Source of the DNA: a virus
Taxonomy: Duplodnaviria; Heunggongvirae; Uroviricota; Caudoviricetes
DNA: 18,981 nucleotides
Reading direction: 5' to 3' (one strand)
Virus record (IMG/VR): IMGVR_UViG_2558860274_000004
Span: 1-18,981 of that record
Under the pieces are notes generated by a model. It was not told where the DNA came from. It made no database searches and was given only the letters and a program-made list of their open reading frames with translations. Within the stretch, counting starts at the first letter, position 1. Each line of letters begins with the position of its first letter. The position numbers and the translations under genes are program-made. Below, in pieces: positions 1 to 17,841 of the stretch.

Positions 1-1233
1 ATGACTAAAAAACCATGGGAAAGAAGACTTAAAGATTTATCGCACTTGCTCAAATGCTGCATTGATACATATTTTGACCCTGAATTATTCCGCTTGAATT
101 TGAATCAATTCCTCCAAACCGCAAGAACAGTAACATTTATTATTCAAAAAAACAAAAACCAGATTATAGGATATGACATTTGGTATAACAATAATGTTAT
201 TGAAAAATGGAAAAATGATCCATTAATGGCTTGGGCTAAAAATTCTCGCAATACGATAGAAAAACAAGGCGATTTAGAAATGTATAGCGAGGCAAAGGCT
301 ACTCTTATTTCATCTTACATTGAAGAAAATGACATTGAGTTTATTACAAATGAAAGTATGTTAAACATTGGTATAAAAAAGTTAGTCAGACTTGCACAAA
401 AGAAATTACCTTCATATTTAACTGAATCATCTATTATTAAATCAGAAAGACGATGGGTCGCTAATACGCTAAAAGATTACGAATTATTACATGCCTTAGC
501 TATAATCTATGGCAGAATGTATAACTGCTGTAACTCTCTTGGCATACAAATAAACAATCCAATGGGTGACGATGTGATTTCGCCAACATCATTCGACTCT
601 TTATTTGATGAAGCCAGGAGAATAACTTATTTAAAATTAAAAGATTACTCCATAAGCAAATTGTCATTTAGCATGATACAATATGATAATAAAATAATTC
701 CTGAAGATATTAAAGAGCGTCTAAAACTGGTAGATAAGCCTAAAAATATCACTTCGACAGAAGAGTTAGTTGACTATACAGCCAAGCTTGCAGAAACGAC
801 TTTTTTAAAGGACGGTTATCACATTCAAACATTAATTTTTTATGATAAACAATTCCATCCAATTGATTTAATCAATACAACATTTGAAGATCAAGCAGAT
901 AAATATATTTTTTGGCGTTATGCAGCTGACAGAGCCAAAATAACAAATGCCTATGGCTTCATTTGGATATCAGAGCTATGGCTCAGAAAAGCAAGCATCA
1001 ACTCCAATAAACCAATACATACAATGCCAATTATAGATGAAAGACTTCAGGTAATTGGAATTGATTCAAATAATAATCAAAAATGTATTTCATGGAAAAT
1101 AGTTAGAGAAAATGAAGAAAAAAAACCGACTTTAGAAATATTAACAGCAGACTCAAAACATGACGAAAAACCATATTTCATGCGTTCAGTCTTAAAAGCA
1201 ATTGGCGGTGATGTAAACACTATGAACAATTGA
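1..1233 (+). CDS. hypothetical protein (410 aa), AT-rich orphan, function unknown
   Basis: Long uninterrupted ORF starting at ATG at position 1 and ending with TGA at 1231-1233. Composition is visibly AT-rich (about one-third G+C in the first 120 nt by hand count), unlike the rest of the window. No motif I can assign. Convergent with the Q-like gene. Confidence 0.6.
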   Translation: MTKKPWERRLKDLSHLLKCCIDTYFDPELFRLNLNQFLQTARTVTFIIQKNKNQIIGYDIWYNNNVIEKWKNDPLMAWAKNSRNTIEKQGDLEMYSEAKATLISSYIEENDIEFITNESMLNIGIKKLVRLAQKKLPSYLTESSIIKSERRWVANTLKDYELLHALAIIYGRMYNCCNSLGIQINNPMGDDVISPTSFDSLFDEARRITYLKLKDYSISKLSFSMIQYDNKIIPEDIKERLKLVDKPKNITSTEELVDYTAKLAETTFLKDGYHIQTLIFYDKQFHPIDLINTTFEDQADKYIFWRYAADRAKITNAYGFIWISELWLRKASINSNKPIHTMPIIDERLQVIGIDSNNNQKCISWKIVRENEEKKPTLEILTADSKHDEKPYFMRSVLKAIGGDVNTMNN

Positions 1234-1312
1234 GTCATAGAACTTCCATTATTCTCCTGAAGATAATAATCGCCAAATAAACCAATACTCAGTTTTACAA
1301 TATAATAACTAA

Positions 1313-1346
1313 CCGCAGAACGTTATTTCATACAACGTTTCTGCGG
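1313..1346. terminator. inverted-repeat hairpin between convergent genes (candidate terminator)
   Basis: ccgcagaacgtt (1313-1324), 9-nt loop, aacgtttctgcgg (1334-1346): near-perfect 12-bp stem. On the minus strand it is followed by a T/A-rich stretch. Lies between the stop of the 1..1233 ORF and the stop of the Q-like ORF. Confidence 0.4.
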
Positions 1347-1361
1347 CATATCACAAAACGA

Positions 1362-1759
1362 TTACTCCATAACAGGGACAGCAGGCCACTCAATATCAGG
1401 TGCAGTTGATGTATCAACACGGTTCAGCAACACCCGATACTTCTTCCAGACTTCCAGCAACGAGGTTTCTTCCTCCGTTGCGATTTCCAGATCTGCAGCA
1501 TCCTGAAGTGGCGCGATATGCTCACTGGCTACCTGCATCAGGCTGTTTTTTGTTTCTTCCGCTTCAGGCGAGCCATGCATCCACAAATGATCATCGCGTC
1601 ATCGTCACAACATTGCGGGCGGGATTTTACTTTTGAAGGGATTAGTCCTTTAAATCCTGCAGCAATAGACGACCAGGTGACATCCTCGTGATTATTTGCC
1701 ACCCATGCCCCCCAACGTTCAAGAACCATTTGAATATCACGCATCAACTTTCTCCACAA
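1362..1759 (-). pseudogene. Q-family late antiterminator-like gene, split into two frames at a T6/A6 homopolymer
   Basis: ORF 1538..1759 (minus) encodes [24 protein letters not shown]...[16 protein letters not shown], which I recall as the N-terminus of small enterobacterial Q-like antiterminators. It stops just after a homopolymer (plus-strand tttttt at 1545-1550). ORF 1362..1586 continues in another frame. A 1-nt indel in the run would join them into about 130 aa. Confidence 0.5.
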
Positions 1760-1761
1760 AA

Positions 1762-2757
1762 TCAGGCCAGCACGCCAATTGCCAGCGCACGATCGATAAA
1801 ACGAAATATCAGCTCCAGCTGGGAGCCATACTTCTCTTCAAATGCCACGGTATCCGCATGCAGCTCGTCGTGATGCTTTCTGCACAAAGGCAACACAAAA
1901 AGGTCATGCGCTTTTGTTCCCATTCCACCCTGACCGTGACCTATCAGGTGGTGGGGATCATCAGCGGGCTTTCCACAACATGCACACGGCTGTGTCATAA
2001 CCCAGCGCGTGTACTTTTCATTAACCCAGCGGCGACGTTTTGGGCGTAACATAAAAGACTCCGGCGACTCCGGATCCACTTTCAGCGCCAGCACCTTTTT
2101 CGCCTTATCCTGGATGATGCTGGTGGCAGGAACCGAAGGCACAAGGTCACTTTCCCGGGTAACAGACGGCACAACAGGCTTCGGTAATCTCAGTGCCTTA
2201 CGGGCTGCACTTTCCGGTAAGGCATCCGCCAGATCATTACGAATCAGCCACCAGCACAGTTCCGGCATTGTCACAACGTGACTGTCATCAAAACCGAGAT
2301 CCCGACGCACAACAGACAACACCCAGCGGGCACAGTTATCCGTTGCCATTGATTCCAGCCGTTCCGTGAACTGATCGCGCAGCTGGTTATCGCAGTGCCA
2401 GCACAGACGGATTGCACCCGGAGCGTGTCGCATTGTGGTCATGTTCTCGCTGTGCCAGTCGGAATGAGGCCACTGGCAGCCTTTTTCACGAAGTAACCAG
2501 CTTTCAAGACATTCCACGCCACCAGCACGACGGATCACTGCCTCATCGCGGAACACGGCCCGAACGGCAGGATCATCCGCCAGCAGTTGTGATGCCGCCG
2601 GAACGGCACCACTGGCGAAAGATGAATAACGCTCCGGCTCAGGCTCCAGCAGGACACGCCCCTGCATAAACAGGGGCATCAGCTCTGAACCTGGCCTGAA
2701 CAATACGATCCCCATACGCGGGGCAATTTCAGGGGTCAGTAGTGCTCTCACGGTCAC
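1762..2757 (-). CDS. DUF968-like prophage protein with C-terminal Cys/His-rich (HNH-like) motif
   Basis: 331-aa ORF. C-terminus [43 protein letters not shown] shows a C-x2-C ... HH ... C-x2-HH pattern typical of DUF968/HNH-like proteins found just upstream of Q in lambdoid prophages. GTG start abutting the upstream gene. Confidence 0.65.
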
Positions 2758-2758
2758 C

Positions 2759-3304
2759 TCAATGAACGGTATCGAGCAGCTTTAACAGCTCAGGGAATCG
2801 GGATTCGAAGAAATGCGGCTGCGTCTCGCGCGGATTTGCGGGACTGGTGATGTTCTTACCGAACATGCAGCCTTTCGCTGTCAGCGACCAGAATTTTTTG
2901 ATGTTGTTAATCGCGGTACGGCTGTATCGTTCGCGCTGCTCGACGATCCCCAGCTTCACCATCTGGTGATATGCCTGATTAGCCGTCAGGCGGATAACCG
3001 GTCCCCACTCCACCAGCATTCTTTTCACCTGTCTGTCGTCTTCCCACACACCCGCGTGGGTCAGGGCGTCAAACAGCGCCTTGTTATAGTTGTCCAGATC
3101 GCGGATCCGGTTAACTGGCTTTGAAGTACGGGTCTTCGCGTTTTTCTGTGTACGTGCTGACGGACGGCGATAAGCGCAGGGAAAGCTCATCCCATTTTTC
3201 CCGCAGCTTCGACGGGCTGAGCACGTTACGGCACCAGAACGGATCGCGGCTGACGCGGCTGTACATCTCGCAGATTTGTTTGTGAGTACGACCATCCTGC
3301 ACAC
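2759..3304 (-). CDS. RusA-family Holliday-junction resolvase-like ORF (motif clear, N-terminal boundary uncertain)
   Basis: Contains RIRDLDNYNKALFDALTHAGVWEDDRQV, which aligns with the RusA catalytic-Asp core ([28 protein letters not shown] from memory). The ORF-track N-terminus (GTG start, Arg/Ser/Ala-rich) does not look like RusA and overlaps the 3' end of the upstream O-like ORF by about 190 nt in another frame. True start may be the internal ATG near 3190, or the gene is frameshifted. Confidence 0.5.
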   Translation of the reverse strand: MCRMVVLTNKSARCTAASAAIRSGAVTCSARRSCGKNGMSFPCAYRRPSARTQKNAKTRTSKPVNRIRDLDNYNKALFDALTHAGVWEDDRQVKRMLVEWGPVIRLTANQAYHQMVKLGIVEQRERYSRTAINNIKKFWSLTAKGCMFGKNITSPANPRETQPHFFESRFPELLKLLDTVH

Positions 3305-4022
3305 ACATCAGGCGAATTTCGTTTGCCCAGGCTGTCCAGTTCGGTTCTTTGGGACGAACCACCTCGCCGTCACATTCGGCGGCCTGCTCGTACAGGGCAA
3401 TGATTTTTTTCCAGAGCCACTGTGCGCAGGTCAAATCATCCTGCGTTCCCCACTGGCGCTTTTTAGGGCTGAATACAACCGCATCAGGATGGCGAGTTAA
3501 AAAATCCTTTTCAGCCGTCTGCGTGTCCGGTTGCGAAGCGTCCGGACGAGAAGGTTTTTTATCTGACGGATCATGTTTTGATTTTACTGACGGATCCCCG
3601 CCAGATTCTGACGGGTGAAAACCCGCTTTTTTGCCAGATTTCGACGCATCAAATTTTGACGGGTCAGATTTTGATGCGTCAGATTTTGATGCGTCAGATT
3701 TTGACGGGTCAGAATCTGACAGTTGAGAAAATGCCGCTGCCTGAAGCTTCGCAACGTTAAGCTGATAAACATTCGACGCATTGCGGTTACCCTGGCGACG
3801 CGCCTTACGCGTTAACCAGCCTTCTGCTTCCAGCCGTGCGATAGCCGTTCTGACGGTGCTCATCCCCGCGCCAATCTGGCGGGCAATGGTTTCAATTGAT
3901 GGCCAGCACACACCTTCGTCATTACTGAAATCAGCCAGGCGGGCCATAATTGCCACGCTGGATAACTTCATGCCTGACGCAGCGCAACCATCCCATACAT
4001 AGCCGGTTAATTTAGTGCTCAT
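3111..4022 (-). CDS. replication initiator protein (lambda O-like role) with HTH N-terminus and internal iteron-encoded repeat
   Basis: 303-aa ORF with GAGG Shine-Dalgarno 7 nt upstream of ATG at 4022. N-terminal winged-HTH-like segment (SIETIARQIGAGMSTVRTAIARLEAEGWL). Central SKSDASKSDASKSDPSKFDASK repeat is encoded by 15-bp direct DNA repeats, the arrangement of lambdoid O genes that carry ori inside the coding sequence. Confidence 0.7.
   Translation of the reverse strand: MSTKLTGYVWDGCAASGMKLSSVAIMARLADFSNDEGVCWPSIETIARQIGAGMSTVRTAIARLEAEGWLTRKARRQGNRNASNVYQLNVAKLQAAAFSQLSDSDPSKSDASKSDASKSDPSKFDASKSGKKAGFHPSESGGDPSVKSKHDPSDKKPSRPDASQPDTQTAEKDFLTRHPDAVVFSPKKRQWGTQDDLTCAQWLWKKIIALYEQAAECDGEVVRPKEPNWTAWANEIRLMCVQDGRTHKQICEMYSRVSRDPFWCRNVLSPSKLREKWDELSLRLSPSVSTYTEKREDPYFKAS
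3580..3725. repeat. iteron array (candidate prophage origin of replication) inside the initiator gene
   Basis: At least four tandem 15-bp units (gtcagattttgatgc, gtcagattttgatgc, gtcagattttgacgg, gtcagaatctgacag) at about 3656-3722, plus degenerate copies upstream (ctgacggatc at 3582-3600). Each unit has internal dyad symmetry (tcagattttga vs tcaaaatctga). Confidence 0.6.
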
Positions 4023-4031
4023 GACCGACCT

Positions 4032-4370
4032 CTATTTCCCTGAATTTACGACGAAACTGTTCGAGCGGACTGAAGCATTCATGCTCATAACCTTCGCGGA
4101 GGTAGATAACCCGTTGTGTTTCCGGCTCCCAACGAATGACTCTGACGGGCACTCCGTAGTGATCTTTGAACCAGCGGTTAACTTGTCGCAAAGGACTGTC
4201 TCCTTCTGCCGGTTGAAATCACCCACAGCCCACTCTGCAAAGCTGTGGGTTACAATTTCCCTATCACCTGGTACATTCACTGCATAGCAATATTCCACCT
4301 TCGCTTTTCCACCCGGTACAGGAAGCGCAATCAGTTGCGAGCGACGGTAGTGTGTTGTTAAACTGTTCAT
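4032..4370 (-). CDS. hypothetical protein (112 aa)
   Basis: ATG at 4370 overlaps the TGA stop of the upstream CII-like gene (ATGA overlap, translational coupling). Stop at 4032-4034 lies 10 nt before the initiator start. No recognisable motif. Confidence 0.45.
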
Positions 4371-4924
4371 GCGTTAGTTTCTCCACAACCAGAAGCAATC
4401 GACGCCACGACGCCCGGAGCTGCACACTCGCGGGCGTCATTACTTTCTGAAATGCAAAAAATTTTGTAGACAAGTGCTGCATGCTCCTGCAGCTTCGAAA
4501 TTGAGAGATACAGCTCGTCGTTAATTGCTGTCTTCTCATGCGGTTCCACTACGCCGTCTTCGATTGCTGAACGAATCTGTTTTGAATAACTGCCGATCTG
4601 TTCAATGACTTCCAGCAGACGCTGGTTAATATCGGCGTTGTCCACATCCTCGACGTCAGGAAGAGACACAAAGACGCCATTTGCAGACTGCGCCACAGCA
4701 TCAGCAATGAAGTGAGTGCCACCAGCACGCTGTAAAACCATTGCCCATCCCAGCGGGAAAATCTGATCGCCATCTGCACGAAGGCGGTTGAATAAAGCGT
4801 TTTCTGTTACATCGAGCCAGTCAGCCGCTTCAGCGTAACCACCCGGCAACGCCGCGATAGTTTTTCTGACAGCTTTCACGTACCACTCAGGCTGTTTTTC
4901 CACTTTCCAGTGATGATTACCCAC
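4367..4924 (-). CDS. CII-like phage regulatory protein (family assignment tentative)
   Basis: 185-aa ORF directly downstream of cro-like gene in the same operon. GTG start preceded by AGGAGG 6 nt upstream. Position and size fit CII-like prophage regulators; no catalytic motif seen. Confidence 0.5.
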
Positions 4925-5177
4925 GGCTTACCTCCTGTTCCTGTGGTTTAAACCCATTCTGGTTTTGGCTAGATTGAAAACGTGCCGGATAAAGAATCTG
5001 CATTTCGCTGATTTCACCCTTAAAAAAATTGGCCAGACGTTCTGCAAGATCGATAGATGGAATTTGTTCCAGTCTTTCAATACGACTCAGCGTCGCTGGA
5101 TTGACCTGAACGCCAGCAGCAACATGCTGCAAAGTAAATCCGTGCGCCTTACGCACATTCCGTAATGGTGATTGCAT
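4917..5177 (-). CDS. Cro/XRE-type HTH transcriptional regulator (cro-like)
   Basis: 86-aa ORF divergent from the cI-like gene. GGAGG Shine-Dalgarno 4-8 nt upstream of ATG at 5175-5177. Helix-turn-helix-like segment FTLQHVAAGVQVNPATLSRIE. Confidence 0.75.
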   Translation of the reverse strand: MQSPLRNVRKAHGFTLQHVAAGVQVNPATLSRIERLEQIPSIDLAERLANFFKGEISEMQILYPARFQSSQNQNGFKPQEQEVSRG

Positions 5178-5274
5178 ATGACCTCCACATATTGCGTGAT
5201 GAGCATATTATTTCACGCAAATATTTTGCGCAAGTTGATTTGCTTAACGCGCAATAAAGAAATGTAATAAACGC
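5178..5274. promoter_or_regulatory. immunity-region divergent promoters and operators between cro-like and cI-like genes
   Basis: 97-bp intergenic region with repeated TTGCG(T/C) / (A/G)CGCAA half-sites: ttgcgtga-N13-tcacgcaa (5192-5220), cgcaaa-tat-tttgcg (5215-5229), ttgcgcaa (5226-5233), acgcgcaa (5247-5254). Candidate -10 taatat for the leftward (cro) promoter on the minus strand at 5205-5210. Candidate ttgctt/tgtaat rightward promoter giving a near-leaderless cI transcript. Confidence 0.55.
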
Positions 5275-5967
5275 ATGAACATAGGAAACCGAGTCAGACA
5301 ACTTCGCCAGGCGAAGAACATGAAAATCGCCGATCTCGCTGAAGCAATAGGAGTGGATGCGGCGAATATCTCACGCCTGGAAACAGGTAAGCAGAAACAA
5401 TTCACTGAACAAGCCCTGAGTAATATTGCCAAGAGCTTAGGTGTTGATATTGCTGATCTCTTTACCTCAGACTTCAAAAGTAATACTGTATGTAAAAACA
5501 GTATTAGTGAGGATGTTGCGCAGGTGAAGGATGTATTCCGTATTGAAATGCTGGATGTCAGTGCCAGTGCGGGAAATGGCCTTATCCAGGGCGGTGATGT
5601 CATTGATGTGATTCATGCCATTGAATACAGAACTGATAATGCTGTATCGATGTTTGGCGGACGGCCAGCCAATCACATTAAAGTTATCAACGTTCGTGGG
5701 GACAGTATGTGTCCAGCCATTGAGCCAGGAGATCTCATCTTCGTTGATGTCAGTATCAATCAGTTTGATGGAGATGGTATCTATGTATTTGGTTTTGATG
5801 ATAAAATTTATGTCAAACGACTGCAAATGATACCTGACAAACTACTGGTGATTTCTGATAACCAGATTTACCGTGAATGGGGAATTACCAGCGAAAATGA
5901 ACACCGGTTTATGGTCTTTGGAAAGGTCTTAATCAGCCAGTCACAAACCCTTAAGCGACACAATTAA
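5275..5967 (+). CDS. cI-like repressor, LexA/S24 family (N-terminal XRE HTH plus C-terminal autocleaving peptidase domain)
   Basis: 230-aa ORF. HTH segment MKIADLAEAIGVDAANISRLETG. Ala-Gly candidate cleavage site in SASAGNG (about residues 99-100). Ser in VRGDSMCP and Lys in YVKRL spaced 37 residues apart as in the LexA Ser/Lys dyad. Confidence 0.9.
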   Translation: MNIGNRVRQLRQAKNMKIADLAEAIGVDAANISRLETGKQKQFTEQALSNIAKSLGVDIADLFTSDFKSNTVCKNSISEDVAQVKDVFRIEMLDVSASAGNGLIQGGDVIDVIHAIEYRTDNAVSMFGGRPANHIKVINVRGDSMCPAIEPGDLIFVDVSINQFDGDGIYVFGFDDKIYVKRLQMIPDKLLVISDNQIYREWGITSENEHRFMVFGKVLISQSQTLKRHN

Positions 5968-5987
5968 CCCTTACCTCCTCATCAATT

Positions 5988-6009
5988 AGCCACCCAAAGG
6001 TGGCTTTTC
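5988..6009 (+). terminator. intrinsic terminator downstream of cI-like gene
   Basis: agccacc (5988-5994), caaa loop, ggtggct (5999-6005), followed by tttcatt. Confidence 0.5.
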
Positions 6010-6485
6010 ATTACCCTTTAAATTGCATATCTCGCAACAAAAGCACTTGCATAATGCGCAACTTCATTTTATCTTTCTTTCCAGACAAACAAACAAGGTA
6101 CTAACAAAATTTGGTTGTAACACGGCGTATGGCACATGCGTCGTTAGCGGTCTGGGGACGTTAAAGGGGACAATCCACTCCTTGCTCGGGCAAACAAACC
6201 AGGTAGCCGGAATGTGCAAGTCAATGATGATGCTGATAAGACGCCTAACCAGCGTGGCGATCCGGTTTGACGCCTGGGAAGAGACCAGGGTGCAACGATG
6301 AGGGCATTTATAGAGCCGCGACAAAGTGTGGTGCCGTAACTGGCTAAGTGCTCTCAGCGTTGTGGTAATCCGCGAAATGGCGCGGCGGTAAGTATGGCGG
6401 GGTTACTCTTTCCCCGTTGAGGACACCGGATTGTCAGGTTGACCATACGCCTGAGTGACAACCCCACCACAACAGCCACTGCTTT

Positions 6486-6532
6486 GGCGGTACCAGTTTG
6501 TACACTTGCTTCCTGCTGGTACCGCTCTTTTT
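6486..6532 (+). terminator. strong hairpin plus T-tract inside the long leader upstream of the early-left genes
   Basis: ggcggtaccag (6486-6496), about 19-nt loop, ctggtaccgc (6516-6525), followed by tcttttt (6526-6532). Confidence 0.5.
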
Positions 6533-6669
6533 ACAAAACAGAGAAGAGCATCACCGGACGACGGGCTCATAACCCAATCCATCCGGGCGGCTGCCACCGC
6601 AGGTGTTCTTCTCTGTTTTGTGGAGAAACCAACCGACCTTGCAGGGTCGATATGATGAGGAGCAGCAAA

Positions 6670-7032
6670 ATGGCTAGCGAACGCAGTACTGATGTGCAGG
6701 CATTTATCGGGGAGCTGGACGGCGGCGTATTTGAAACCAAAATCGGCGCAGTTCTCAGTGAAGTCGCTTCCGGTGTGATGAACACGAAAACCAAAGGTAA
6801 GGTCTCACTCAACCTGGAAATCGAACCATTTGATGAGAACCGTGTGAAAATCAAACACAAACTCTCATATGTTCGCCCGACTAACCGCGGGAAAATTTCC
6901 GAAGAAGACACCACCGAAACGCCGATGTATGTCAATCGCGGTGGTCGCCTGACTATTCTGCAGGAAGACCAGGGACAATTACTGACTCTTGCCGGTGAAC
7001 CTGACGGAAAACTACGCGCAGCAGGTCATTAA
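6670..7032 (+). CDS. small early prophage protein (about 121 aa), hypothetical
   Basis: ORF track gives 6439..7032, but the plausible start is ATG at 6670 with GAGGAG about 8 nt upstream. The upstream extension overlaps the terminator hairpin and has no ribosome-binding site. Size resembles a YfdP-like protein (recollection only). Confidence 0.5.
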   Translation: MASERSTDVQAFIGELDGGVFETKIGAVLSEVASGVMNTKTKGKVSLNLEIEPFDENRVKIKHKLSYVRPTNRGKISEEDTTETPMYVNRGGRLTILQEDQGQLLTLAGEPDGKLRAAGH

Positions 7033-7097
7033 TATCGTTCTTAATTAACTGATTATTTATCTCATCACTGAATATCTTTATATAGTGAGGACTTATT

Positions 7098-7922
7098 ATG
7101 TCTCAGAACTTAGACGCAACCGCAATTAATCAAATCCATGCCCTTATTTCTGCTCAGGGTGTTAATGAAATTATCAGTAATATTGGTGCCGATGCTGTGG
7201 CATTGCCTGAGAATTTCCGCATTCATGATCTGGAAAAATTTAATTTAAATCGCTTCCGTTTCCGTGGTGCGCTTTCCACTGCCAGCATCGATGACTTTAC
7301 CCGTTATTCTAAAGATCTTGCAGATGAAGGCACCCGCTGCTTTATCGATGCTGATAATATGCGTGCCGTCAGTGTACTTAACCTGGGTACTATTGATGAA
7401 CCAGGTCACGCAGATAACACCGCCACTCTCAAACTGAAAAAGACAGCACCGTTCTCTGCCCTGTTGTCTGTTAACGGCGAGCGTAACTCCCAGAAGTCAC
7501 TGGCAGAATGGATTGAAGACTGGGCCGACTACCTTGTGGGCTTTGATGCTAATGGTGACGCTATTCAGGCAACAAAAGCGGCTGCGGCAGTCCGTAAAAT
7601 CACGATTGAAGCAAACCAGACCGCTGATTTTGAAGATAATGACTTCAGCGGCAAACGCTCCCTGATGGAGTCTGTCGAAGCGAAGACCAAAGACATTATG
7701 CCAGTGGCATTTGAATTTAAATGCGTTCCGTTTGAAGGTCTGAAAGAACGTCCGTTTAAATTACGCCTCAGCATTATCACTGGCGATCGTCCTGTACTGG
7801 TTCTGCGCATTATTCAGCTGGAGGCGGTGCAGGAAGAAATGGCTAACGAATTTCGTGATCTGCTTGTTGAGAAATTCAAGGACAGCAAAGTAGAAACCTT
7901 TATTGGTACTTTCACCGCCTGA
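7098..7922 (+). CDS. DUF2303-like prophage protein (YfdQ-like, 274 aa)
   Basis: ATG at 7098 with GAGGA 8 nt upstream. Length and gene order (followed by an HD-domain gene and DUF551 genes) match my recollection of the yfdPQRST block of E. coli prophages. Identity not verified. Confidence 0.6.
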
Positions 7923-8049
7923 TTTCATTACTGCAAATGCCCCTGCGGGGGCATTTATGGAAACGTAATTTACTCAATAATCGCCGGATGGTGAGGGATT
8001 CTTTTTACCAGAATTCAGCGCGGTGCAGCGCATATACGTGGAGAACAAA

Positions 8050-8586
8050 ATGTCATTTATCAAAACTTTTTCCGGGAAGCATTTTTATTATGACAGGATA
8101 AATAAAGACGACATCGATATTAACGATATCGCGGTTTCCCTTTCAAATATCTGTCGCTTTGCCGGTCATCTTTCGCACTTCTACAGCGTCGCCCAACATG
8201 CGGTTCTTTGCAGCCAGCTGGTGCCGCAGGAATTTGCTTTTGAAGCGTTAATGCATGATGCAACAGAAGCGTATTGCCAGGACATTCCCGCACCACTGAA
8301 ACGCCTTCTTCCTGACTATAAACGGATGGAAGAAAAAATAGACGCCGTAATCCGTGAGAAATACGGGTTACCCCCGGTTATGAGTACACCCGTGAAATAT
8401 GCCGATCTCATCATGCTGGCAACCGAACGCCGCGATCTCGGGCTTGATGATGGCTCTTTCTGGCCTGTACTGGAAGGCATCCCGGCAACAGAGATGTTCA
8501 ACGTGATTCCACTGGCACCGGGCCATGCCTACGGGATGTTTATGGAACGTTTTAACGATTTATCGGAGTTACGCAAATGCGCATGA
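8050..8586 (+). CDS. HD-domain phosphohydrolase-like protein (YfdR-like, 178 aa)
   Basis: Probable start at ATG 8050 (GGAGA 6 nt upstream); ORF track begins at 8023. Candidate HD-type metal-binding residues in ...SHFYSVAQHAV...MHDATEAY... Stop overlaps the next gene start. Confidence 0.7.
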   Translation: MSFIKTFSGKHFYYDRINKDDIDINDIAVSLSNICRFAGHLSHFYSVAQHAVLCSQLVPQEFAFEALMHDATEAYCQDIPAPLKRLLPDYKRMEEKIDAVIREKYGLPPVMSTPVKYADLIMLATERRDLGLDDGSFWPVLEGIPATEMFNVIPLAPGHAYGMFMERFNDLSELRKCA

Positions 8587-8939
8587 ATGTTTTCGAAATG
8601 GAAGGGTTTCTTCGCGGGAAATGTGTACCGCGAGATCTGAAAGTGAACGAAACAAATGCTGAGTACCTGGTACGTAAATTCGACGCGCTTGAAGCTAAAT
8701 GTGCGGCACTGGAAAACAAAATAATACCAGTGTCAACTGAACTGCCACCAGCAAATGAAAGTGTTCTGTTATTTGATGCTAATGGAGAAGGCTGGCTGAT
8801 TGGCTGGCGTTCTCTCTGGTACACCTGGGGACAAAAAGAAACCGGAGAATGGCAGTGGACATTTCAGGTCGGGGACCTTGAAAACTTCAATATCACTCAC
8901 TGGGCAGTAATGCCCAAAGCGCCGGAGGCTGGAGCATAA
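8577..8939 (+). CDS. DUF551-type small prophage protein (YfdS-like, 120 aa)
   Basis: Start overlaps the preceding stop (ATGCGCATGA). C-terminal ITHWAVMPKAPE resembles the THWMPLPxPP signature of DUF551. Confidence 0.6.
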   Translation: MRMNVFEMEGFLRGKCVPRDLKVNETNAEYLVRKFDALEAKCAALENKIIPVSTELPPANESVLLFDANGEGWLIGWRSLWYTWGQKETGEWQWTFQVGDLENFNITHWAVMPKAPEAGA

Positions 8940-9451
8940 TGACCACATTTACCAATAAAGAACTGATTAAAGAAATCAAAGAACGAATCAGCAGCCTAGA
9001 GGTTCGAGACGATATTGAGCGCCGTGCTTATGAAATTGCTCTGGCATCGCTGGAAGAGGAGCCGGTGGCATGGCTGCATTCAGACAATGGCTTAGGTATT
9101 CCGGCAATAACCAGGAGCAAAAACATTGCTGACAGTTGGTTATCAATGGGCTGGTATGTTCAGCCGCTATATATAGCCAAGCCAGTACTGGTGGTGCCAG
9201 ATGCTCGTCCGTCTTTAAATAATGGCATAGTCGGTTTTGATGAAGGCTGGAACGCCTGCCGCGCTACCATGCTTCATGGTGCCAAACCTGTAAGCCAGAC
9301 TTACAAGTTGAACAAGCTGTCGGGCAACTCTCCGGTAACTCAGGATGGTTGGATAAGCTGTAGTGAGCGAATGCCGAACGATAAACAGTATGTTTGGTGT
9401 TGGGGTAAGTCTTACGGCTGGACTGAGTGCGATACCTTCGAAGGGTATTAG
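8939..9451 (+). pseudogene. 5' portion (170 codons) of an Ead/DUF551-type gene interrupted by IS66-family insertion
   Basis: ORF ends at a TAG created at the insertion junction (ta from host plus g from the IS end). The reading frame resumes after the IS at 11992 and ends with VTHWMPLPEPPQEVK, the DUF551 signature. Confidence 0.7.
9443..9450. repeat. 8-bp target-site duplication (gggtatta), left copy, IS66-family element
   Basis: Identical to 11983-11990, immediately flanking the IS ends. Confidence 0.85.
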
Positions 9452-9535
9452 TAAGCGTAAACTGACCGCCGTATGTAGCCATCAGACGAGAATTGGTAAC
9501 TTAGACGCCCATCTGATATAGACGGACATCTAAGT

Positions 9536-9961
9536 ATGGAATTACAGGACTGGCGAAAAGAACCTCGTAAAAACTATTCGAATGAATTCAAACTTCGTAT
9601 GGTGGAACTGGCATCACAACCTGGAGCTTGTGTTGCACAGATTGCACGTGAAAATGGCGTCAATGATAATGTTATTTTCAAATGGCTCAGGCTCTGGCAG
9701 AACGAAGGGCGTGTTTCGCGGCGTCTTCCGGTAACGACCTCTTCTGACACTGGCGTTGAATTATTACCTGTAGAAATAACGCCGGATGAGCAGAAAGAAC
9801 CTGTGGCGGCCATTGCGCCGTCTTTATCCACTTCCACTCAGACCAGAGTCAGTGCCAGTTCCTGCAAGGTGGAATTCCGTCACGGCAACATGACGCTGGA
9901 AAATCCATCGCCAGAGCTGCTCACAGTGTTGATCCGTGAACTGACCGGGAGGGGAAGATGA
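9536..9961 (+). CDS. tnpA: IS66-family accessory protein TnpA (orf1)
   Basis: 141-aa ORF with HTH-like N-terminus (NYSNEFKLRMVELASQPGACVAQIARENGV), first gene in the IS, overlapping tnpB by 4 nt. Confidence 0.8.
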   Translation: MELQDWRKEPRKNYSNEFKLRMVELASQPGACVAQIARENGVNDNVIFKWLRLWQNEGRVSRRLPVTTSSDTGVELLPVEITPDEQKEPVAAIAPSLSTSTQTRVSASSCKVEFRHGNMTLENPSPELLTVLIRELTGRGR

Positions 9962-10308
9962 TCTCACTCCCATCAGGTACCCGTATCTGGCTCGTTGCCG
10001 GCGTTACCGATATGCGTAAATCCTTCAACGGACTGGGAGAACAGGTACAACATGTGCTGAATGATAATCCCTTCTCCGGTCACCTGTTTATCTTCCGTGG
10101 CCGACGGGGTGACACCGTCAAAATTCTTTGGGCTGATGCTGATGGTCTGTGCCTGTTCACCAAACGCCTGGAGGAAGGCCAGTTTATCTGGCCTGCGGTA
10201 CGTGACGGCAAGGTATCCATTACCCGCTCGCAACTGGCAATGCTCCTCGATAAGCTGGACTGGCGTCAGCCAAAAACATCCAGCCGTAACTCACTGACAA
10301 TGTTGTAA
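9958..10308 (+). CDS. tnpB: IS66-family TnpB (orf2)
   Basis: 116-aa ORF (LPSGTRIWLVAGVTDMRKSFNGL...) in the characteristic middle position of IS66 elements. Confidence 0.8.
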   Translation: MISLPSGTRIWLVAGVTDMRKSFNGLGEQVQHVLNDNPFSGHLFIFRGRRGDTVKILWADADGLCLFTKRLEEGQFIWPAVRDGKVSITRSQLAMLLDKLDWRQPKTSSRNSLTML

Positions 10309-10338
10309 AAAACTCCTGACCGCATTATAAAAACGGTC

Positions 10339-11952
10339 ATGAGTCAGAAATACCTCATTCGCATCGCAGAGCTGGAAAGGTTGCTCTCTGAGCAGGCTGA
10401 AGCCCTCCGTCAGAAAGACCAGCAACTGAGTCTGGTTGAAGAGACGGAAGCCTTCCTGCGCTCTGCACTGACACGTGCCGAAGAAAAGATCGAAGAAGAT
10501 GAACGGGAAATAGAACATCTGCGGGCTCAGATAGAAAAACTGCGCCGGATGCTGTTCGGTACCCGTTCTGAAAAACTGCGTCGTGAAGTTGAACTGGCTG
10601 AGGCTCTGCTGAAACAACGTGAACAGGACAGCGATCGTTACAGTGGGCGGGAAGACGATCCTCAGGTTCCCCGCCAGTTGCGACAGTCGCGCCATCGTCG
10701 TCCGTTACCGGCACACCTTCCCCGTGAAATACACCGCCTGGAGCCAGAAGAAAGCTGTTGCCCGGAGTGTGGCGGTGAGCTGGATTATCTGGGGGAAGTC
10801 AGCGCTGAACAGCTGGAACTGGTGAGCAGTGCCCTGAAAGTGATCCGCACAGAACGGGTAAAAAAAGCCTGTACAAAATGTGACTGTATTGTTGAAGCAC
10901 CGGCGCCGTCCCGCCCGATAGAGCGTGGTATCGCGGGCCCCGGATTACTTGCCCGCGTGTTAACGGGAAAATACTGCGAACATCTGCCACTGTATCGTCA
11001 GAGTGAAATCTTTGCCCGCCAGGGTGTCGAACTGAGCCGGGCCTTACTCTCCAACTGGGTTGACGCGTGCTGCCAGTTAATGACACCGGTGAATGATGCC
11101 CTGTACCGTTATGTAATGAACACCCGCAAGGTTCACACTGATGACACACCGGTAAAGGTACTGGCACCGGGTCAGAAAAAGGCGAAAACAGGGCGTATCT
11201 GGACGTATGTCCGGGATGATCGCAATGTGGGTTCGTCATCTCCTCCAGCGGTCTGGTTCGCGTACTCGCCGAACCGGCAGGGGAAACACCCGGAGCAACA
11301 CCTCCGCCCCTTCCGGGGTATCCTGCAGGCGGATGCGTTCACAGGTTACGACAGGTTGTTCAGTGCAGGACGTGAAGGTGGTGCACTGACAGAAGTTGCG
11401 TGCTGGGCCCATGCCCGGCGAAAAATCCACGATGTATACATCAGCAGCAAAAGTGCGACGGCAGAAGAAGCACTGAAGCGAATCAGTGAACTGTACGCCA
11501 TCGAGGATGAAATACGGGGATTACCGGAGTCAGAGCGTCTTGCCGTCAGGCAGCAGCGAAGCAAAGTGTTACTGACGTCGCTGCATGAATGGATGGTGGA
11601 GAAGAATGGTACGCTGTCGAAAAAATCCAGACTGGGCGAAGCGTTCAGCTATGTACTGAATCAGTGGGATGCCCTCTGTTATTACAGTGATGACGGTCTG
11701 GCGGAGGCGGATAATAATGCTGCGGAAAGAGCGCTTCGTGCAGTCTGTCTCGGAAAGAAAAACTTTATGTTCTTTGGCAGCGATCACGGCGGCGAGCGTG
11801 GAGCACTGTTGTACGGGCTGATCGGCACCTGCCGTCTGAACGGTATCGATCCGGAAGCGTATCTGCGCCATATCCTGAGCGTACTGCCGGAATGGCCTTC
11901 CAACCGAGTTGATGAACTCCTGCCATGGAACGTAGTACTCACCAATAAATAA
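10339..11952 (+). CDS. tnpC: IS66-family transposase TnpC (orf3)
   Basis: 537-aa ORF with N-terminal coiled-coil/leucine-zipper region, CxxC...CxxC zinc-finger-like motif (CCPECGGEL...CTKCDC) and a C-terminal catalytic region, as in IS66 transposases. Confidence 0.85.
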   Translation: MSQKYLIRIAELERLLSEQAEALRQKDQQLSLVEETEAFLRSALTRAEEKIEEDEREIEHLRAQIEKLRRMLFGTRSEKLRREVELAEALLKQREQDSDRYSGREDDPQVPRQLRQSRHRRPLPAHLPREIHRLEPEESCCPECGGELDYLGEVSAEQLELVSSALKVIRTERVKKACTKCDCIVEAPAPSRPIERGIAGPGLLARVLTGKYCEHLPLYRQSEIFARQGVELSRALLSNWVDACCQLMTPVNDALYRYVMNTRKVHTDDTPVKVLAPGQKKAKTGRIWTYVRDDRNVGSSSPPAVWFAYSPNRQGKHPEQHLRPFRGILQADAFTGYDRLFSAGREGGALTEVACWAHARRKIHDVYISSKSATAEEALKRISELYAIEDEIRGLPESERLAVRQQRSKVLLTSLHEWMVEKNGTLSKKSRLGEAFSYVLNQWDALCYYSDDGLAEADNNAAERALRAVCLGKKNFMFFGSDHGGERGALLYGLIGTCRLNGIDPEAYLRHILSVLPEWPSNRVDELLPWNVVLTNK

Positions 11953-11982
11953 GCGTCAATACGGTGCTCCGTTGACGCTTAC

Positions 11983-11990
11983 GGGTATTA
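11983..11990. repeat. 8-bp target-site duplication (gggtatta), right copy, IS66-family element
   Basis: Identical to 9443-9450. Confidence 0.85.
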
Positions 11991-11991
11991 C

Positions 11992-12099
11992 GATTGGTCG
12001 AGAAACAAATGGTGGGCAGTTACTGACGATGGGGAAGAACCGGCATCGAAAGTAACCCACTGGATGCCGCTACCGGAGCCACCGCAGGAGGTGAAGTAA
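11992..12099 (+). pseudogene. 3' portion of the IS66-interrupted DUF551-type gene
   Basis: In frame with 8939..9450 once the IS and one TSD copy are removed: ...EGY-Y-DWSRNKWWAVTDDGEEPASKVTHWMPLPEPPQEVK, stop TAA at 12097-12099. Confidence 0.7.
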
Positions 12100-12293
12100 T
12101 GAACAACTTAATGACAACTAAACAAGTCGCCGACTTCTGTGGCGTTTCAGTATCGACCGTTCTTCGCTGGAACAGCGTAAACAGGAGAACTGGCCAGAAA
12201 TACAGGCCTGACTTTCCAGATCCTGATATTAAATCCTGCCCAAATAAATGGGCATCACGCAAGATATACAGGTTTGCTGGAGTTATTGAGTGA
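12099..12293 (+). CDS. small HTH DNA-binding protein, AlpA/excisionase-like (64 aa)
   Basis: ATG overlaps the preceding stop (TAATG). TTKQVADFCGVSVSTVLRW resembles the HTH of AlpA/Xis-type prophage regulators. Assignment from motif only. Confidence 0.5.
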   Translation: MNNLMTTKQVADFCGVSVSTVLRWNSVNRRTGQKYRPDFPDPDIKSCPNKWASRKIYRFAGVIE

Positions 12294-12359
12294 TGGGTAT
12301 TAGCTCATATCAGAACTAATACCCATCAATGACACAGAGCCAACTACCCACCCTGTGTC
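12291..12359. terminator. two hairpins between convergent AlpA-like and SIR2 genes
   Basis: tgatgggtattag (12291-12303), 12-nt loop, ctaatacccatca (12316-12328): perfect 13-bp stem. Second dyad gacacag (12331-12337) / ctgtgtc (12353-12359). No clear U-tract, so possibly a recombination or protein-binding dyad rather than a terminator. Confidence 0.4.
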
Positions 12360-12495
12360 AGGGGCTAACTTTTAACACCATAATTCACCGCTAGATAAAA
12401 ACTGTATTGCATTGCACGAGCGGCGCAGCATTATCAGTTAGAGTGTCTTTACCTTGTTAGGCTCCACAGTTCGCACTGTCCAACGCCTGTCACTT

Positions 12496-15400
12496 TCACA
12501 CGCTGCGCCTTCGAGAATATTCATTTAATCGCTGATAACGAACATCTTGCTCCAGTTGTGGAGCAGCTTGAACAATTTGAAGCAAGCATTGCCCCAACTC
12601 TCGAGGCCCCCAGTGTTGTTCGGCAATCACGGCATTCAGCAGGGATAGAGCGTCCGCAGGATATCGGCTGCAAATATCTGATTCTAGCAAAAGGCGAACG
12701 TCGTAGCTAAGGTGTTCGAGCGGTTGCAGCCAGTCCTGCACCACTGCCAAAGCCGCCGGAAATTCACCTCGGGCAGCAATCACCATACGAGTCAACGATT
12801 CGGATATGCGTGGGGTGGCCAAGTTGCGGGACTTTGGCCAAACCTGTTGCCAAAATGGCTGGACACGATTTTTCCAATACTCCTCGCGCTGATCGCCCGC
12901 ACCTTCAAGTGCCTGGTATAACGCCTGCGCGGCTACCTCCAGACCTTCTTGTGGAAGAGCACTAATTGCCGTTCGGAACTCCTCCACGGTATATCCCTCG
13001 GTAGGGCCCAGAGCTGCATAAGTCAGGAAAATAGCGAATTGCTGCCGGTGCTCGCCAAGATCAGAATAGTGATTGGCGCTCTCCAAAAAATCTGACTTGA
13101 AAGCTATCAGCAACGGTTCATACAGGCGTGGCGACCAGAGGAAGCCTTCCCACACAGCTTTTGCTTCGACGGGATTACTCCAAGCAAACAAGGGCAATAG
13201 ATACTGTTCGGTCCAAGGTCGATCTACGCGAAAAAATGCGATCAGCCGCGACCCCAGCAACACCCGACCATGGCGGAATAGCTCTATCTGTACATTACAC
13301 AATTTGGTGAAAAGTGTTTTCAATTCAACAGGAAGCAAATCATTGTCATTCGGGTTCTGTTTGAACCATAGGGTGATCAGTGATTGCGTGACATGCCCAA
13401 TGGGATGATTGATCGCCGTAGAAACAGGATCATAGGTCTCAATTCCGTTTCGAATGGTGCTAGACTCTGGGCTTGTTTCTATCATCAGAACCCGACGACA
13501 AAGGGCCAGTAGAATCTCCTCGTGGCAGAGGATGGTCTTCGAAGCCTCCTCCATCCACCAAGTGACAGCGTGGGAAATCTCCTGAAGTACTGCGTCAGGC
13601 ATGTCAAGCACCAACGGTGCGGCGTACCGCCACGAACGCATAATCATCCCTGGTTCAGCCCAAGTCTGCAGAGCTTCACGCCACCGACCAACAGGCCACA
13701 CATCATCTTGTGATAGTTTACGTAACGCATACAGACTGTGAAAAAAGCGCGTACGGCAAACATCACTCCAAGTGTCCTCATAGAAAGGCAGTCTTTCTGG
13801 CATAGGCTTTGCGAGCCATTGCACTAATTCCTGCCACTTACGGGGCGCAATGTCGACATCTATACTCTCCTCGAAGCCTGGATCACCGGTTCCGCTCATC
13901 CAGTGAGAGAATTCATCACGCTCGTTGGTTGCCAGTTGCCATTTTGGGTATGCTGTGGATATTTCCGTCAAACGTGTAGCCGCAGACTCTCCCAAAACAA
14001 GGCCCGCTCCCCTGAGCTTCGCTAGACACAACCAGACGGAATGAGCCACCAAATAATGCCACCTGTCTGCTTCCAAATTATCCTCGTACATCTCGCGCGG
14101 AGGCCCTGCCAAGATAGCAGTTTCCAGACGCTCTTGTGCAATTCCTGTCAGATGTCGTCCCTGCAAAACAAACAGTCTGAATACCTCTCGCCGAGTATCC
14201 GTGGCCCACAACCACCATGAACCGTCCTCTAACAACCAATTAACCCACCGCTCAGGTGGTATGCAGTTGTCTTGGCTTGCGGCAAACAGTGCCAGACGTT
14301 TGAAGGTGGGATATGGCAACTCAAACCAATTCTGAGCAATGCGCGAGGCCTGATCGCTGTCTTTGGCTCGAACGGCTAACCATGAATCCCGAAGTAATTC
14401 AATCAGGCTCACCCAATCGCGGAACCCCCGGTTCTGCCAGTGCGGAGTGATGGACGGCAAATCCCAATGCGAGCGGTCGTGACGATCGTCGGACTCTCCC
14501 AACTCCCGCAACAAGTCCAGTGCATCACGCAACAACTGCTGAAAATCTTCCAACAGGTATGGCAAGGACGATTTCCATGACTCGTCAGCAAGGTCGAACA
14601 GGGTTGAACGTACGTAATCAGCAGTCAGCACCAGCTCCCAATCCACCAATTGCTTGATTCGCAAGGGTTCATCAGTGCTGCTCGAATCGTCTTCACTATA
14701 GCGAAACGGCCGCCTCAACATAACCTTGGGAGAAAGCAACTCGCGTAACTCCAAGCGCAATGTAGTCGTCAAGCCTTCATTCTTTAAGCGGTTTTGCCAA
14801 CGATACAAATCCAGGTTCTGCAATGGCGATTTCACACGACCACTAAGCAGAAGCCGCCATAAAGTAGACATAGGTGGACCAGGAATAGCCAGGGGGGAAT
14901 GCAAGAGAATTTCATCTAACTCAGAAGTCTTACGCTCCCGCATCAGTGCTGCTAAGCGATCTAGTTCGCTCTCAATCAGAAACATCCAACGGTCGTGTAT
15001 TTGTCCGCCGCGTTCAGCAATCCATATGATCAACCTAGGGTCGCCCAGATAACGAACTAGCCAACGGGCTATATGGGACATTACGTCATCCCATTTGCTA
15101 GCACTGACACATCCAGAAACCAGCGACATCTGCGGGGCCAGCTCATAGGGCGCAGGACGCTGAACCAGACTGAATCGGAGTTTCGGGTCAATTTCGACAT
15201 GCGGAGATACACAAAAGCGTGGCAGATCGCTGTATTTAAATCGTTCGTCCGAGAAAGCTTTCAATAACCAATCCAGCGGCGGTGCAGGATTGAGTTCCGC
15301 AAAGCGTTTTGCTGGTAAACCTGATTTATCTGACAAGGCCCACAACATCCGACCAACGAAATCGTCCTGACGAGTGCTGTCCTGCGGGCGGGCCAGAGCA

Positions 15401-16323: not shown

Positions 16324-16505
16324 TCCTTTTCCTCCTATCCAATGTGCACGTTCATTCGAGTAAATGAAGGCAAGGGGTTACATCTTATTATACCGACCGT
16401 GCAAATCCGGCTTCCTAGCAAGCTACTTTACTTGCCAACTCATAATGTCCGAACTCCGAACAAAGCGGACTGCTAGATTTGATTGCGTTCTAGCTACGCA
16501 AAATA

Positions 16506-16608
16506 TCATTTCGAGCCTGAACGAGTACAAGTAACAATCGATTCAACTCTCTCCCACCATGCCTGGTAGGCTTTACGCTGTTCTTCTAGATAATCACTCT
16601 TGTCATAA
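16506..16608 (-). pseudogene. int: displaced 3' end of the integrase gene (encodes the C-terminal 34 residues)
   Basis: Removing the IS3-family element and one copy of its TAA duplication restores the integrase frame: ...LPGVWQVY-DKSDYLEEQRKAYQAWWERVESIVTCTRSGSK, stop TGA at 16506-16508. This is a typical P4-type integrase C-terminal tail. Confidence 0.75.
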
Positions 16609-16616
16609 TGTAGTGG

Positions 16617-17785
<1,169 letters not shown>

Positions 17786-17841
17786 TGGAGCACCTGTGTT
17801 GTTCTGAGGTGAGCATATCACCTCTGTTCAGGTGGCCAAAT

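Follow-up and report, generated by a model that had tools for sequence, protein, structure and literature searches.

Among the closest described counterparts of the gene examined here are the prophage exclusion genes RexAB, SieB, Old and Tin of lambdoid and P2-like phages, together with the morons (Hendrix and colleagues), all of them non-essential cargo of deviant base composition at variable prophage sites. We analysed a stretch of 18,981 nucleotides from a virus of the Caudoviricetes (IMG/VR record IMGVR_UViG_2558860274_000004, positions 1 to 18,981), hereafter the window, whose first gene, at positions 1–1233 on the plus strand, is ea47 of phage λ, a gene that is already catalogued. It shares the above properties with the exclusion genes and the morons, and like them it has flanking hairpins, a promoter-like sequence and reported expression in the lysogen, where microarrays found its transcript at least 2-fold up (PMC1151598). 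Unlike RexAB, SieB, Old and Tin, to which it has no similarity in sequence or fold, Ea47 has no reported exclusion phenotype. As a sequence feature it is ordinary, being a known λ gene in a decayed Escherichia coli prophage; what the analysis yields is a sharpened, testable hypothesis on the function of a long-unassigned gene of a model phage.

Ea47 is a self-sufficient single gene that travels as mobile cargo. On its role, we tentatively favour the view that it is a self-contained defence, exclusion or abortive-infection (Abi) effector, which we consider plausible if still short of probable. The original prediction had offered such a role as a guess, and a reasonable one: it agrees with the neighbourhoods of the homologues, with their fusions and with their carriage in integrons.

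Three further groups of described systems bear on this view. In λ, the immediate neighbours of ea47 in the b region are the genes of the Ea59-Ea31 pair, which are also non-essential; Ea47 is unrelated to them in sequence and is unaccompanied by them in E. coli prophages and at all other places that we examined. The HEPN toxins and Abi proteins (MNT-HEPN, 7ae2 and 5yep; Csm6; the AbiD/F/J/V types) give no profile match from Ea47. Where they have a catalytic His, 97% of Ea47 members have Lys; bundles outside HEPN score equally well, and an extra β-sheet insert and a 160-residue C-terminal domain of Ea47 have no HEPN counterpart. Finally, sedentary chromosomal integrons carry single-gene anti-phage cassettes, and among the integron cassettes of Vibrio cholerae that have been tested, about 10–18% are anti-phage (Darracq et al., bioRxiv 10.1101/2024.07.02.601686). 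Ea47 homologues likewise occur as single-gene cassettes bounded by attC repeats in V. cholerae and Pseudoalteromonas, and none of the 16 validated systems of V. cholerae N16961 has a description that fits Ea47.

A known λ gene and its family

The coding sequence of ea47 runs from an ATG start to a TGA stop, encodes 410 amino acids and represents an allele that is common in E. coli prophages. It is 99.6% identical to λ ea47 (NC_001416, 22686–23918), with 5 nucleotide differences, and two substitutions, Y334N and S381L, separate its product from λ Ea47 (lambdap80, NP_040606), leaving 408 of the 410 residues the same. Exact copies are present in at least ten complete E. coli genomes among the matches listed, and a copy of at least 99% identity is carried by 121 of 5426 complete E. 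coli genomes (2.2%). At the base composition of the gene a stop codon is expected once per 12 codons, which gives a run of 410 stop-free codons a probability of 6e-16, and the five other frames of the region contain 17–48 stops. Thus, ea47 is a genuine coding gene and its contrast in composition is a true one.

The original prediction, made from the letters alone, had described an AT-rich gene of 410 amino acids with a composition sharply different from its surroundings, which is correct, and had suggested a separate horizontal origin, which our results support. Computed over the whole gene, the guanine plus cytosine (G+C) content is 0.312 (0.265 at third positions), against 0.498 for the rest of the window and a span of 0.43–0.56 in ten neighbouring genes. 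Across 58 diverse loci, the homologue has a lower G+C than its flanks in 56, by a mean gap of 9 points, and a separate origin is further indicated by the position of the gene as a cassette behind either ea31 or a dinI-like gene and by its integron relatives. The same prediction had called the gene an orphan to which no domain could be assigned, and this does not hold. A word-indexed protein search returned 454 homologues and an exhaustive profile search 1290 representative clusters (at 50% identity), 390 of them with an expectation value (E) below 1e-30. The phrog_19262 profile covers residues 1–410 of 410 (E 4e-293), its PHROG entry reading function unknown, and the Pfam label PF26900, 'Phage_lambda_Ea47', is attached to the identical protein P0001 and to all listed homologues; this label comes from precomputed public annotation, PF26900 being absent from the Pfam copy that we used for scanning.

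Nearly all family members are standalone proteins of 400–445 amino acids, found in Gamma-, Beta- and Alphaproteobacteria along with a few further groups. They are single-gene integron cassettes in at least four lineages, bounded by attC-type repeats within repeat arrays. Two of these, in V. cholerae (locus L098, 2381–3875) and in Pseudoalteromonas atlantica (L022, 9870–11323), lie in the range of 50–63% identity to the window protein, while two from metagenome-assembled genomes are more distant (L052, 9816–11357, 38% identical; L081, 9604–11461, about 32%). The window copy, with one 34-nt hairpin and no repeat array, is not itself an integron cassette. In Aeromonas the homologue is a single-gene insertion, and among IMG/VR contigs of at least 21 kb, ea47 lies within 3.5 kb of the contig end in 8 of 16. 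No partner gene recurs: across the 58 loci, no Pfam family appears more than three times among the 115 immediate neighbours, where the most repeated families include resolvase (3) and integrase (3), and no small antitoxin-like partner comes back either. Since the family is found in integron cassettes and has no recurrent partner, Ea47 acts as a lone gene.

Two side observations concern individual copies. In one complete genome, NZ_CP060873.1 (E. coli EC27, H11; 4036876–4038885), ea47 is broken by an IS1A insertion. In addition, sequences 95–100% (mostly 99–100%) identical to λ ea47 occur in assemblies labelled Chromatiales, Leeuwenhoekiella, Pseudomonas, Neobacillus, Oceanobacillus, Streptomyces, Fusobacterium and others (L012–L020, L023–L027, L029, L031, L049, L053 and L054). 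Among those with a reported coverage, several are low (about 1–2.5x); some lie on contigs of about 48.5 kb and others are short fragments. This looks like contamination of public genomes by λ control DNA.

Defence genes and sensor domains around Ea47 homologues

Several homologues are found directly beside defence genes. The Lamassu genes LmuA and LmuB adjoin the homologue in a Vibrio prophage, in which the Ea47 gene follows the integrase. In Pectobacterium the neighbours are AbiTii, a SIR2 protein and a GajB-like helicase, and in Shewanella AbiLi/AbiLii; PDC-S39 and PDC-S31 are also directly beside homologues. The set of 58 loci adds LmuB (three times), AriAB, dGTPase, Drt8, HamA and Old as immediate neighbours. 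In λ itself, the Ea59/Ea31 genes that adjoin ea47 (L002, 2946–5410) match the PADLOC models PDC-M01A (E 4e-201), PtuA (E 5e-184) and PDC-M01B (E 6e-113) and form a Septu-like pair of an ATPase and an HNH protein. This pair is present in 91 of the 5426 E. coli genomes, and several among those listed are laboratory strains derived from K-12. Together, these cases make for a suggestive, unquantified link between the Ea47 family and defence genes.

Rare long relatives point in the same direction. In these, a full Ea47 module at the N terminus is joined to a C-terminal SEC-C motif, and three of them (P0179, P0239 and P0241) additionally carry TPR or TPR-S 'sensor' repeats; the long relatives listed are P0179, P0218, P0239, P0241, P0216, P0199 and P0259, with L073 9911–12547, and one protein departs from this layout, as described below. 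The order of the parts, with Ea47 first, is as expected of the effector of a conflict system. When the fusion proteins P0179, P0259 and P0256 were compared with PADLOC, no relevant match was obtained. In one long relative a DUF5677 domain stands N-terminal to the Ea47 module instead, and in Pectobacterium a separate DUF5677 gene adjoins the Ea47 homologue in convergent orientation. DUF5677 was considered as a relative of Ea47 and rejected, the hhalign probability being 0.2%.

Predicted structure and conserved residues

The AlphaFold2 model of Ea47 is a confident one. It comprises an N-terminal, mostly helical domain (about residues 1–190; positions 1–570, plus strand), which is the best conserved part of the protein and our proposed catalytic or effector core, and a C-terminal α/β domain (about residues 253–410; 757–1233, plus strand), in which a helix packs on an antiparallel sheet and which is possibly a regulatory or sensing part. 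Conservation was counted over 95 family members, down to 22% identity. Seven residues are invariant, namely Y24, R42, W78, R83, D91, S96 and W152, all of them in the N-terminal domain, and the near-invariant ones include R9, R31, T45, Q49, K52, N84, K88, G90, R150, E161, K301, E325, W327 and E347. The column counts of this alignment (A5) bring out the motif R-N-x-I-E-K-x-G-D at codons 83–91 (247–273, plus strand). For mutation, the list of invariant residues can be kept short: Y24, R42, R83, K88, D91 and S96.

The spacing R83-x4-K88 fits the R-x4-6-H motif of HEPN proteins, with Lys usually at the His position: position 88 is Lys in 92 of the 95 members and His in the other 3. These three variants read AR[VT]x[IV]VH[KR]GDL, that is R-x4-H, and have V or T in place of N84; the gene directly 5′ of one of them, P0184, is unrelated. 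On the other side, no HEPN family in Pfam matches Ea47 at E ≤10, no solved HEPN protein was retrieved by PDB sequence searches with single-sequence or profile queries, and the predicted N-terminal bundle is no closer to HEPN toxins than to four-helix bundles in general. Because the profile match is absent and the fold match is non-specific, HEPN membership is not established.

A nuclease, HEPN or Abi fold had been named as what searches might reveal in this gene; no profile of that kind matches, and Foldseek of the predicted model against the PDB gave nothing below E 0.1. The hits to GAF, roadblock and kinesin proteins were rejected, with TM-scores (query-normalised) of 0.16 or less. The C-terminal domain has no clear match to any solved fold, and a search of it for a PD-(D/E)xK or other nuclease core gave no structural match. 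When PDB sequences were searched with Ea47 alone and with two profiles, only ElaA (E 0.58) and the maturation protein of a single-stranded RNA phage (E 0.04) came up, both of which we attribute to chance. We judge likewise the match to vRNAP_dom (E 0.034), which at 15 bits stays below the cut-off of 27 bits and is the sole hit of the Pfam, NCBIfam and PADLOC scans.

A metal-independent RNase site based on R and K, of the HEPN or RelE kind, is the most economical mechanistic guess. R42, T45, Q49 and K52 on helix 2 and R83, N84, K88 and D91 on helix 4 would together form a basic, polar site in the N-terminal domain, which would act on a phosphate-bearing substrate, most likely by metal-free cleavage of RNA in the manner of HEPN or RelE-type toxins. 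The poorly conserved C-terminal α/β domain could hold the N-terminal domain inactive until a cue of infection is received, and in the rare fusions the SEC-C and TPR-sensor module may replace or supplement this C-terminal sensing. In the lysogen, the gene would be transcribed from a promoter of its own, and early in lytic growth from pL. In this way, a single-protein accessory module would shield the cell that carries it, or else the resident phage, from other phages.

It is tempting to go further and to propose that Ea47 founds an unrecognised, widespread family of single-protein Abi-type systems with a derived HEPN-like R-x4-K effector, and that, with the Septu-like Ea59/Ea31, the λ b region is a small defence island. 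We regard this extended proposal as rather unlikely. If it were true, one of the last genes of the best-studied phage to lack an assignment would gain a function. If Ea47 is a defence effector, it would represent a new single-protein system, and the λ b region, which is routinely deleted from cloning vectors, would have to be read differently.

Defence and alternative roles

Several observations weigh against a role of Ea47 in defence. None of the PADLOC-DB v2.0.0 hidden Markov models (HMMs) matches the protein (0 families at E ≤10), and neither does any defence-protein or nuclease model of Pfam and NCBIfam. Around the homologues, many immediate neighbours are housekeeping or ordinary metabolic genes, and genes at least six positions away in the same loci yield about 10 strong defence hits per 115, which is comparable to the immediate neighbours. 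PADLOC HMM hits number 149 for the immediate and 27 for the distant genes, a gap that owes part of its size to redundancy among the LmuB and ATPase models, and the background of the comparison is the distant genes of the same loci and not the genome at large. Because near and distant sets are alike when counted as proteins, we claim no enrichment. The original prediction had asked whether the gene is always near prophage ends or defence genes; some homologues are at prophage ends or beside defence systems, and many stand next to housekeeping genes. The grouping of the conserved residues into one spatial site would rest on alignment columns, not on the coordinates of the model. Expression from pL early in lytic growth suits a counter-defence role equally well. 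Finally, the literature searched assigns no role to Ea47 and treats ea47 mostly as a dispensable insertion site; it was chosen as an insertion point (PMC3945230) and was non-essential for λ growth in a CRISPR interference screen (PMC10695390).

The ordinary company of many homologues raises the idea that ea47 is an accessory gene not aimed at phages, either a stress or physiology factor of lysogenic conversion or a selfish, toxin-like gene spread by mobility alone. Functions other than defence are common among integron cassettes and in prophage cargo, more than 80% of the tested V. cholerae cassettes had no anti-phage activity, ordinary metabolic genes adjoin many homologues, and our searches placed Ea47 in no catalytic family. 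Against this stand the repeated direct adjacency to bona fide defence systems, the fusion to the sensor repeats of conflict systems, the Septu-like pair beside ea47 in λ and the presence of the defence gene DSR1 in the same prophage remnant. A selfish toxin would also sit poorly with the failure of any small antitoxin-like partner to recur. Overall, we find this accessory role doubtful.

Alternatively, Ea47 could be a counter-defence or host-takeover protein that is made early from pL, neutralises a host immune system or nuclease, and aids λ instead of the lysogen. Historically, Ea47 is an early ('Ea') λ protein, which counts in favour of this alternative. So do the location of the gene in the non-essential b region of λ, its harmless deletion on the laboratory host and the lack of a match to any defence HMM; moreover, accessory regions close to defence genes are also where anti-defence genes gather. 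A protein serving λ in this manner is nevertheless hard to reconcile with the many homologues that lie away from phage genes, in integron cassettes, in the Aeromonas single-gene insertion and in islands flanked by housekeeping genes. Likewise, Ea47 takes the effector position in the TPR-sensor fusions, the window retains ea47 in a prophage remnant that is incapable of lytic growth, and the microarray data suggest that the gene is expressed in the lysogen. We therefore rate a counter-defence role as quite improbable and retain, with the reservations given above, the defence effector as our preferred reading.

Boundaries of the ea47 unit

The window copy shares with λ the gene itself, the spacer downstream, a hairpin and the tfa neighbour. 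Upstream, what λ and the E. coli prophages have in common is about 345 bp beyond ea47; further out, λ has ea31/ea59, whereas the E. coli prophages, including those with the exact allele of the window, have a dinI-like gene. A 34-nt hairpin lies between the convergent ea47 and tfa remnant at 1313–1346, with folding z scores of -4.7 on the plus strand and -4.8 on the minus strand. A second, direct copy of it (28 of 34 positions identical) is found about 243 nt before the ea47 ATG in λ and in the E. coli prophages, a region outside the window, and the homology between λ and these prophages starts just 5′ of this upstream copy. In the λ locus L002 the two copies are at 5724–5757 and 7313–7346. The window contains a single occurrence of the hairpin pattern, where 0 would be expected, and each λ-type locus contains two. 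The copy at 1313–1346 has no run of T, and a terminator scan made no call there. The paired hairpins may act as insulating terminators or mark old boundaries of recombination. They were also considered as attC sites, a reading that we dropped because of their insufficient length and the missing R''/R' core sequences.

In λ, the stretch from the upstream hairpin to the ATG contains TTGACA and TATCAC, 16 nt apart, and GGAGAG as a ribosome-binding site; these elements were recognised by eye, and a promoter scan did not call them. With this putative promoter, the layout of the ea47 unit resembles that of a moron, an insert made of promoter, gene and terminator, and the G+C of ea47, 0.31 against 0.43–0.56 in its neighbours, is deviant as in a moron.

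The proximity to tfa brings up yet another reading, in which Ea47 has a tail- or virion-associated function tied to stf and tfa. In λ-type prophages ea47 always adjoins tfa, and a yeast two-hybrid study linked Ea47 with U in two vector combinations and with N in one, these being weak links (PMC3224144). However, ea47 and tfa converge, with the hairpin between them, and ea47 thus lies outside the tail operon. Beyond E. coli, the surroundings of its homologues are free of tail genes, the gene is dispensable for plaque formation, and in the window it has survived the deletion of every structural gene. Such a function is therefore very improbable, and the distribution of the family brings it close to being refuted.

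A decayed prophage with a Q-to-tfa deletion

The whole window is a strongly decayed lambdoid prophage. In order, it contains ea47 (plus strand), a tfa remnant and a Q remnant (both minus strand), a DUF968 gene, a partial RusA gene, a helix-turn-helix replication gene, and CII-like and Cro-like genes. These are followed by a CI-like S24 repressor (plus strand), DUF2303, HD-domain and DUF551 genes, IS66, DSR1 (1275 amino acids), IS3 and, at the window end opposite ea47, the integrase (17842–18981).

The usual convergent neighbour of ea47, tfa (λ orf-194), is whole in λ. In the window it is truncated to its C-terminal part, the last 67 codons (1362–1565, minus strand; Pfam Caudo_TAP positions 67–130 of 131, E 3e-30), and fused to an N-terminal remnant, of about 66 codons, of a Q-family antiterminator gene (1563–1759, minus strand; Pfam Phage_antitermQ positions 1–66 of 118). 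Collinearity with λ on the 3′ side of ea47 extends through a 129-nt spacer and the last 67 tfa codons to about 1562–1565, and similarity to annotated Q genes starts at 1563, which leaves an overlap of 3 nt with the tfa part at 1563–1565. The two remnants occupy different reading frames, and the open reading frame of the Q remnant (1538–1759) enters the tfa-derived sequence out of frame and then stops. A deletion from Q to tfa took out the entire late region, with the lysis, head and tail genes.

This deletion changes how the locus should be read. The original prediction placed the gene in the slot downstream of Q where morons or lysis genes are found, an appearance that arises because the deletion fused the tfa and Q remnants; ea47 still occupies its native site of the b region, next to tfa and at the right end of a lambdoid prophage. 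The gene had also been described as convergent with a Q-like gene. A Q remnant is indeed present on the minus strand, but the nearest convergent sequence is the tfa remnant. As for the claimed position at the edge of the prophage, it cannot be seen in the window, which begins at the ea47 ATG; it finds support in intact E. coli relatives, where the order is prfC, the dinI-like gene, ea47, tfa, stf, lom and J onward, with ea47 as the final prophage gene. The Q/tfa junction itself was not found when 5426 complete E. coli genomes were searched for it, nor in IMG/VR, and an assembly artefact is conceivable.

On the minus strand at 1405–1607, the Rfam family IS009 (RF02111) gives a match of 179.9 bits, which is above the gathering score. 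A small RNA gene at this place was considered and rejected: nearly all of the match is located on the tfa coding remnant, so that it provides no evidence for such a gene. Here the family appears to model the sequence of the tail-fibre-assembly gene and not a separate small RNA.

The early right region of the window has probably been rearranged or deleted as well. The reading frame at 2759–3304 (minus strand, 181 amino acids) matches the RusA model only at positions 52–110 of 124 and then continues into unrelated sequence. Across the region aligned to window positions 1563–6000, related genomes are about 2.3 kb longer (6.8 against 4.4 kb, for example). KilA-N and N6-adenine methyltransferase genes are annotated there in these relatives and are not among the open reading frames scanned in the window.

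At the far end of the window, the remnant has kept a known defence gene. DSR1, which encodes a SIR2-domain protein of 1275 amino acids (12496–16323, minus strand), aligns along its full length with the PADLOC Dsr1 model, scoring 2735 bits. It lies near the integrase and between two insertion sequences, IS66 (9536–11952) and IS3 (16617–17821).

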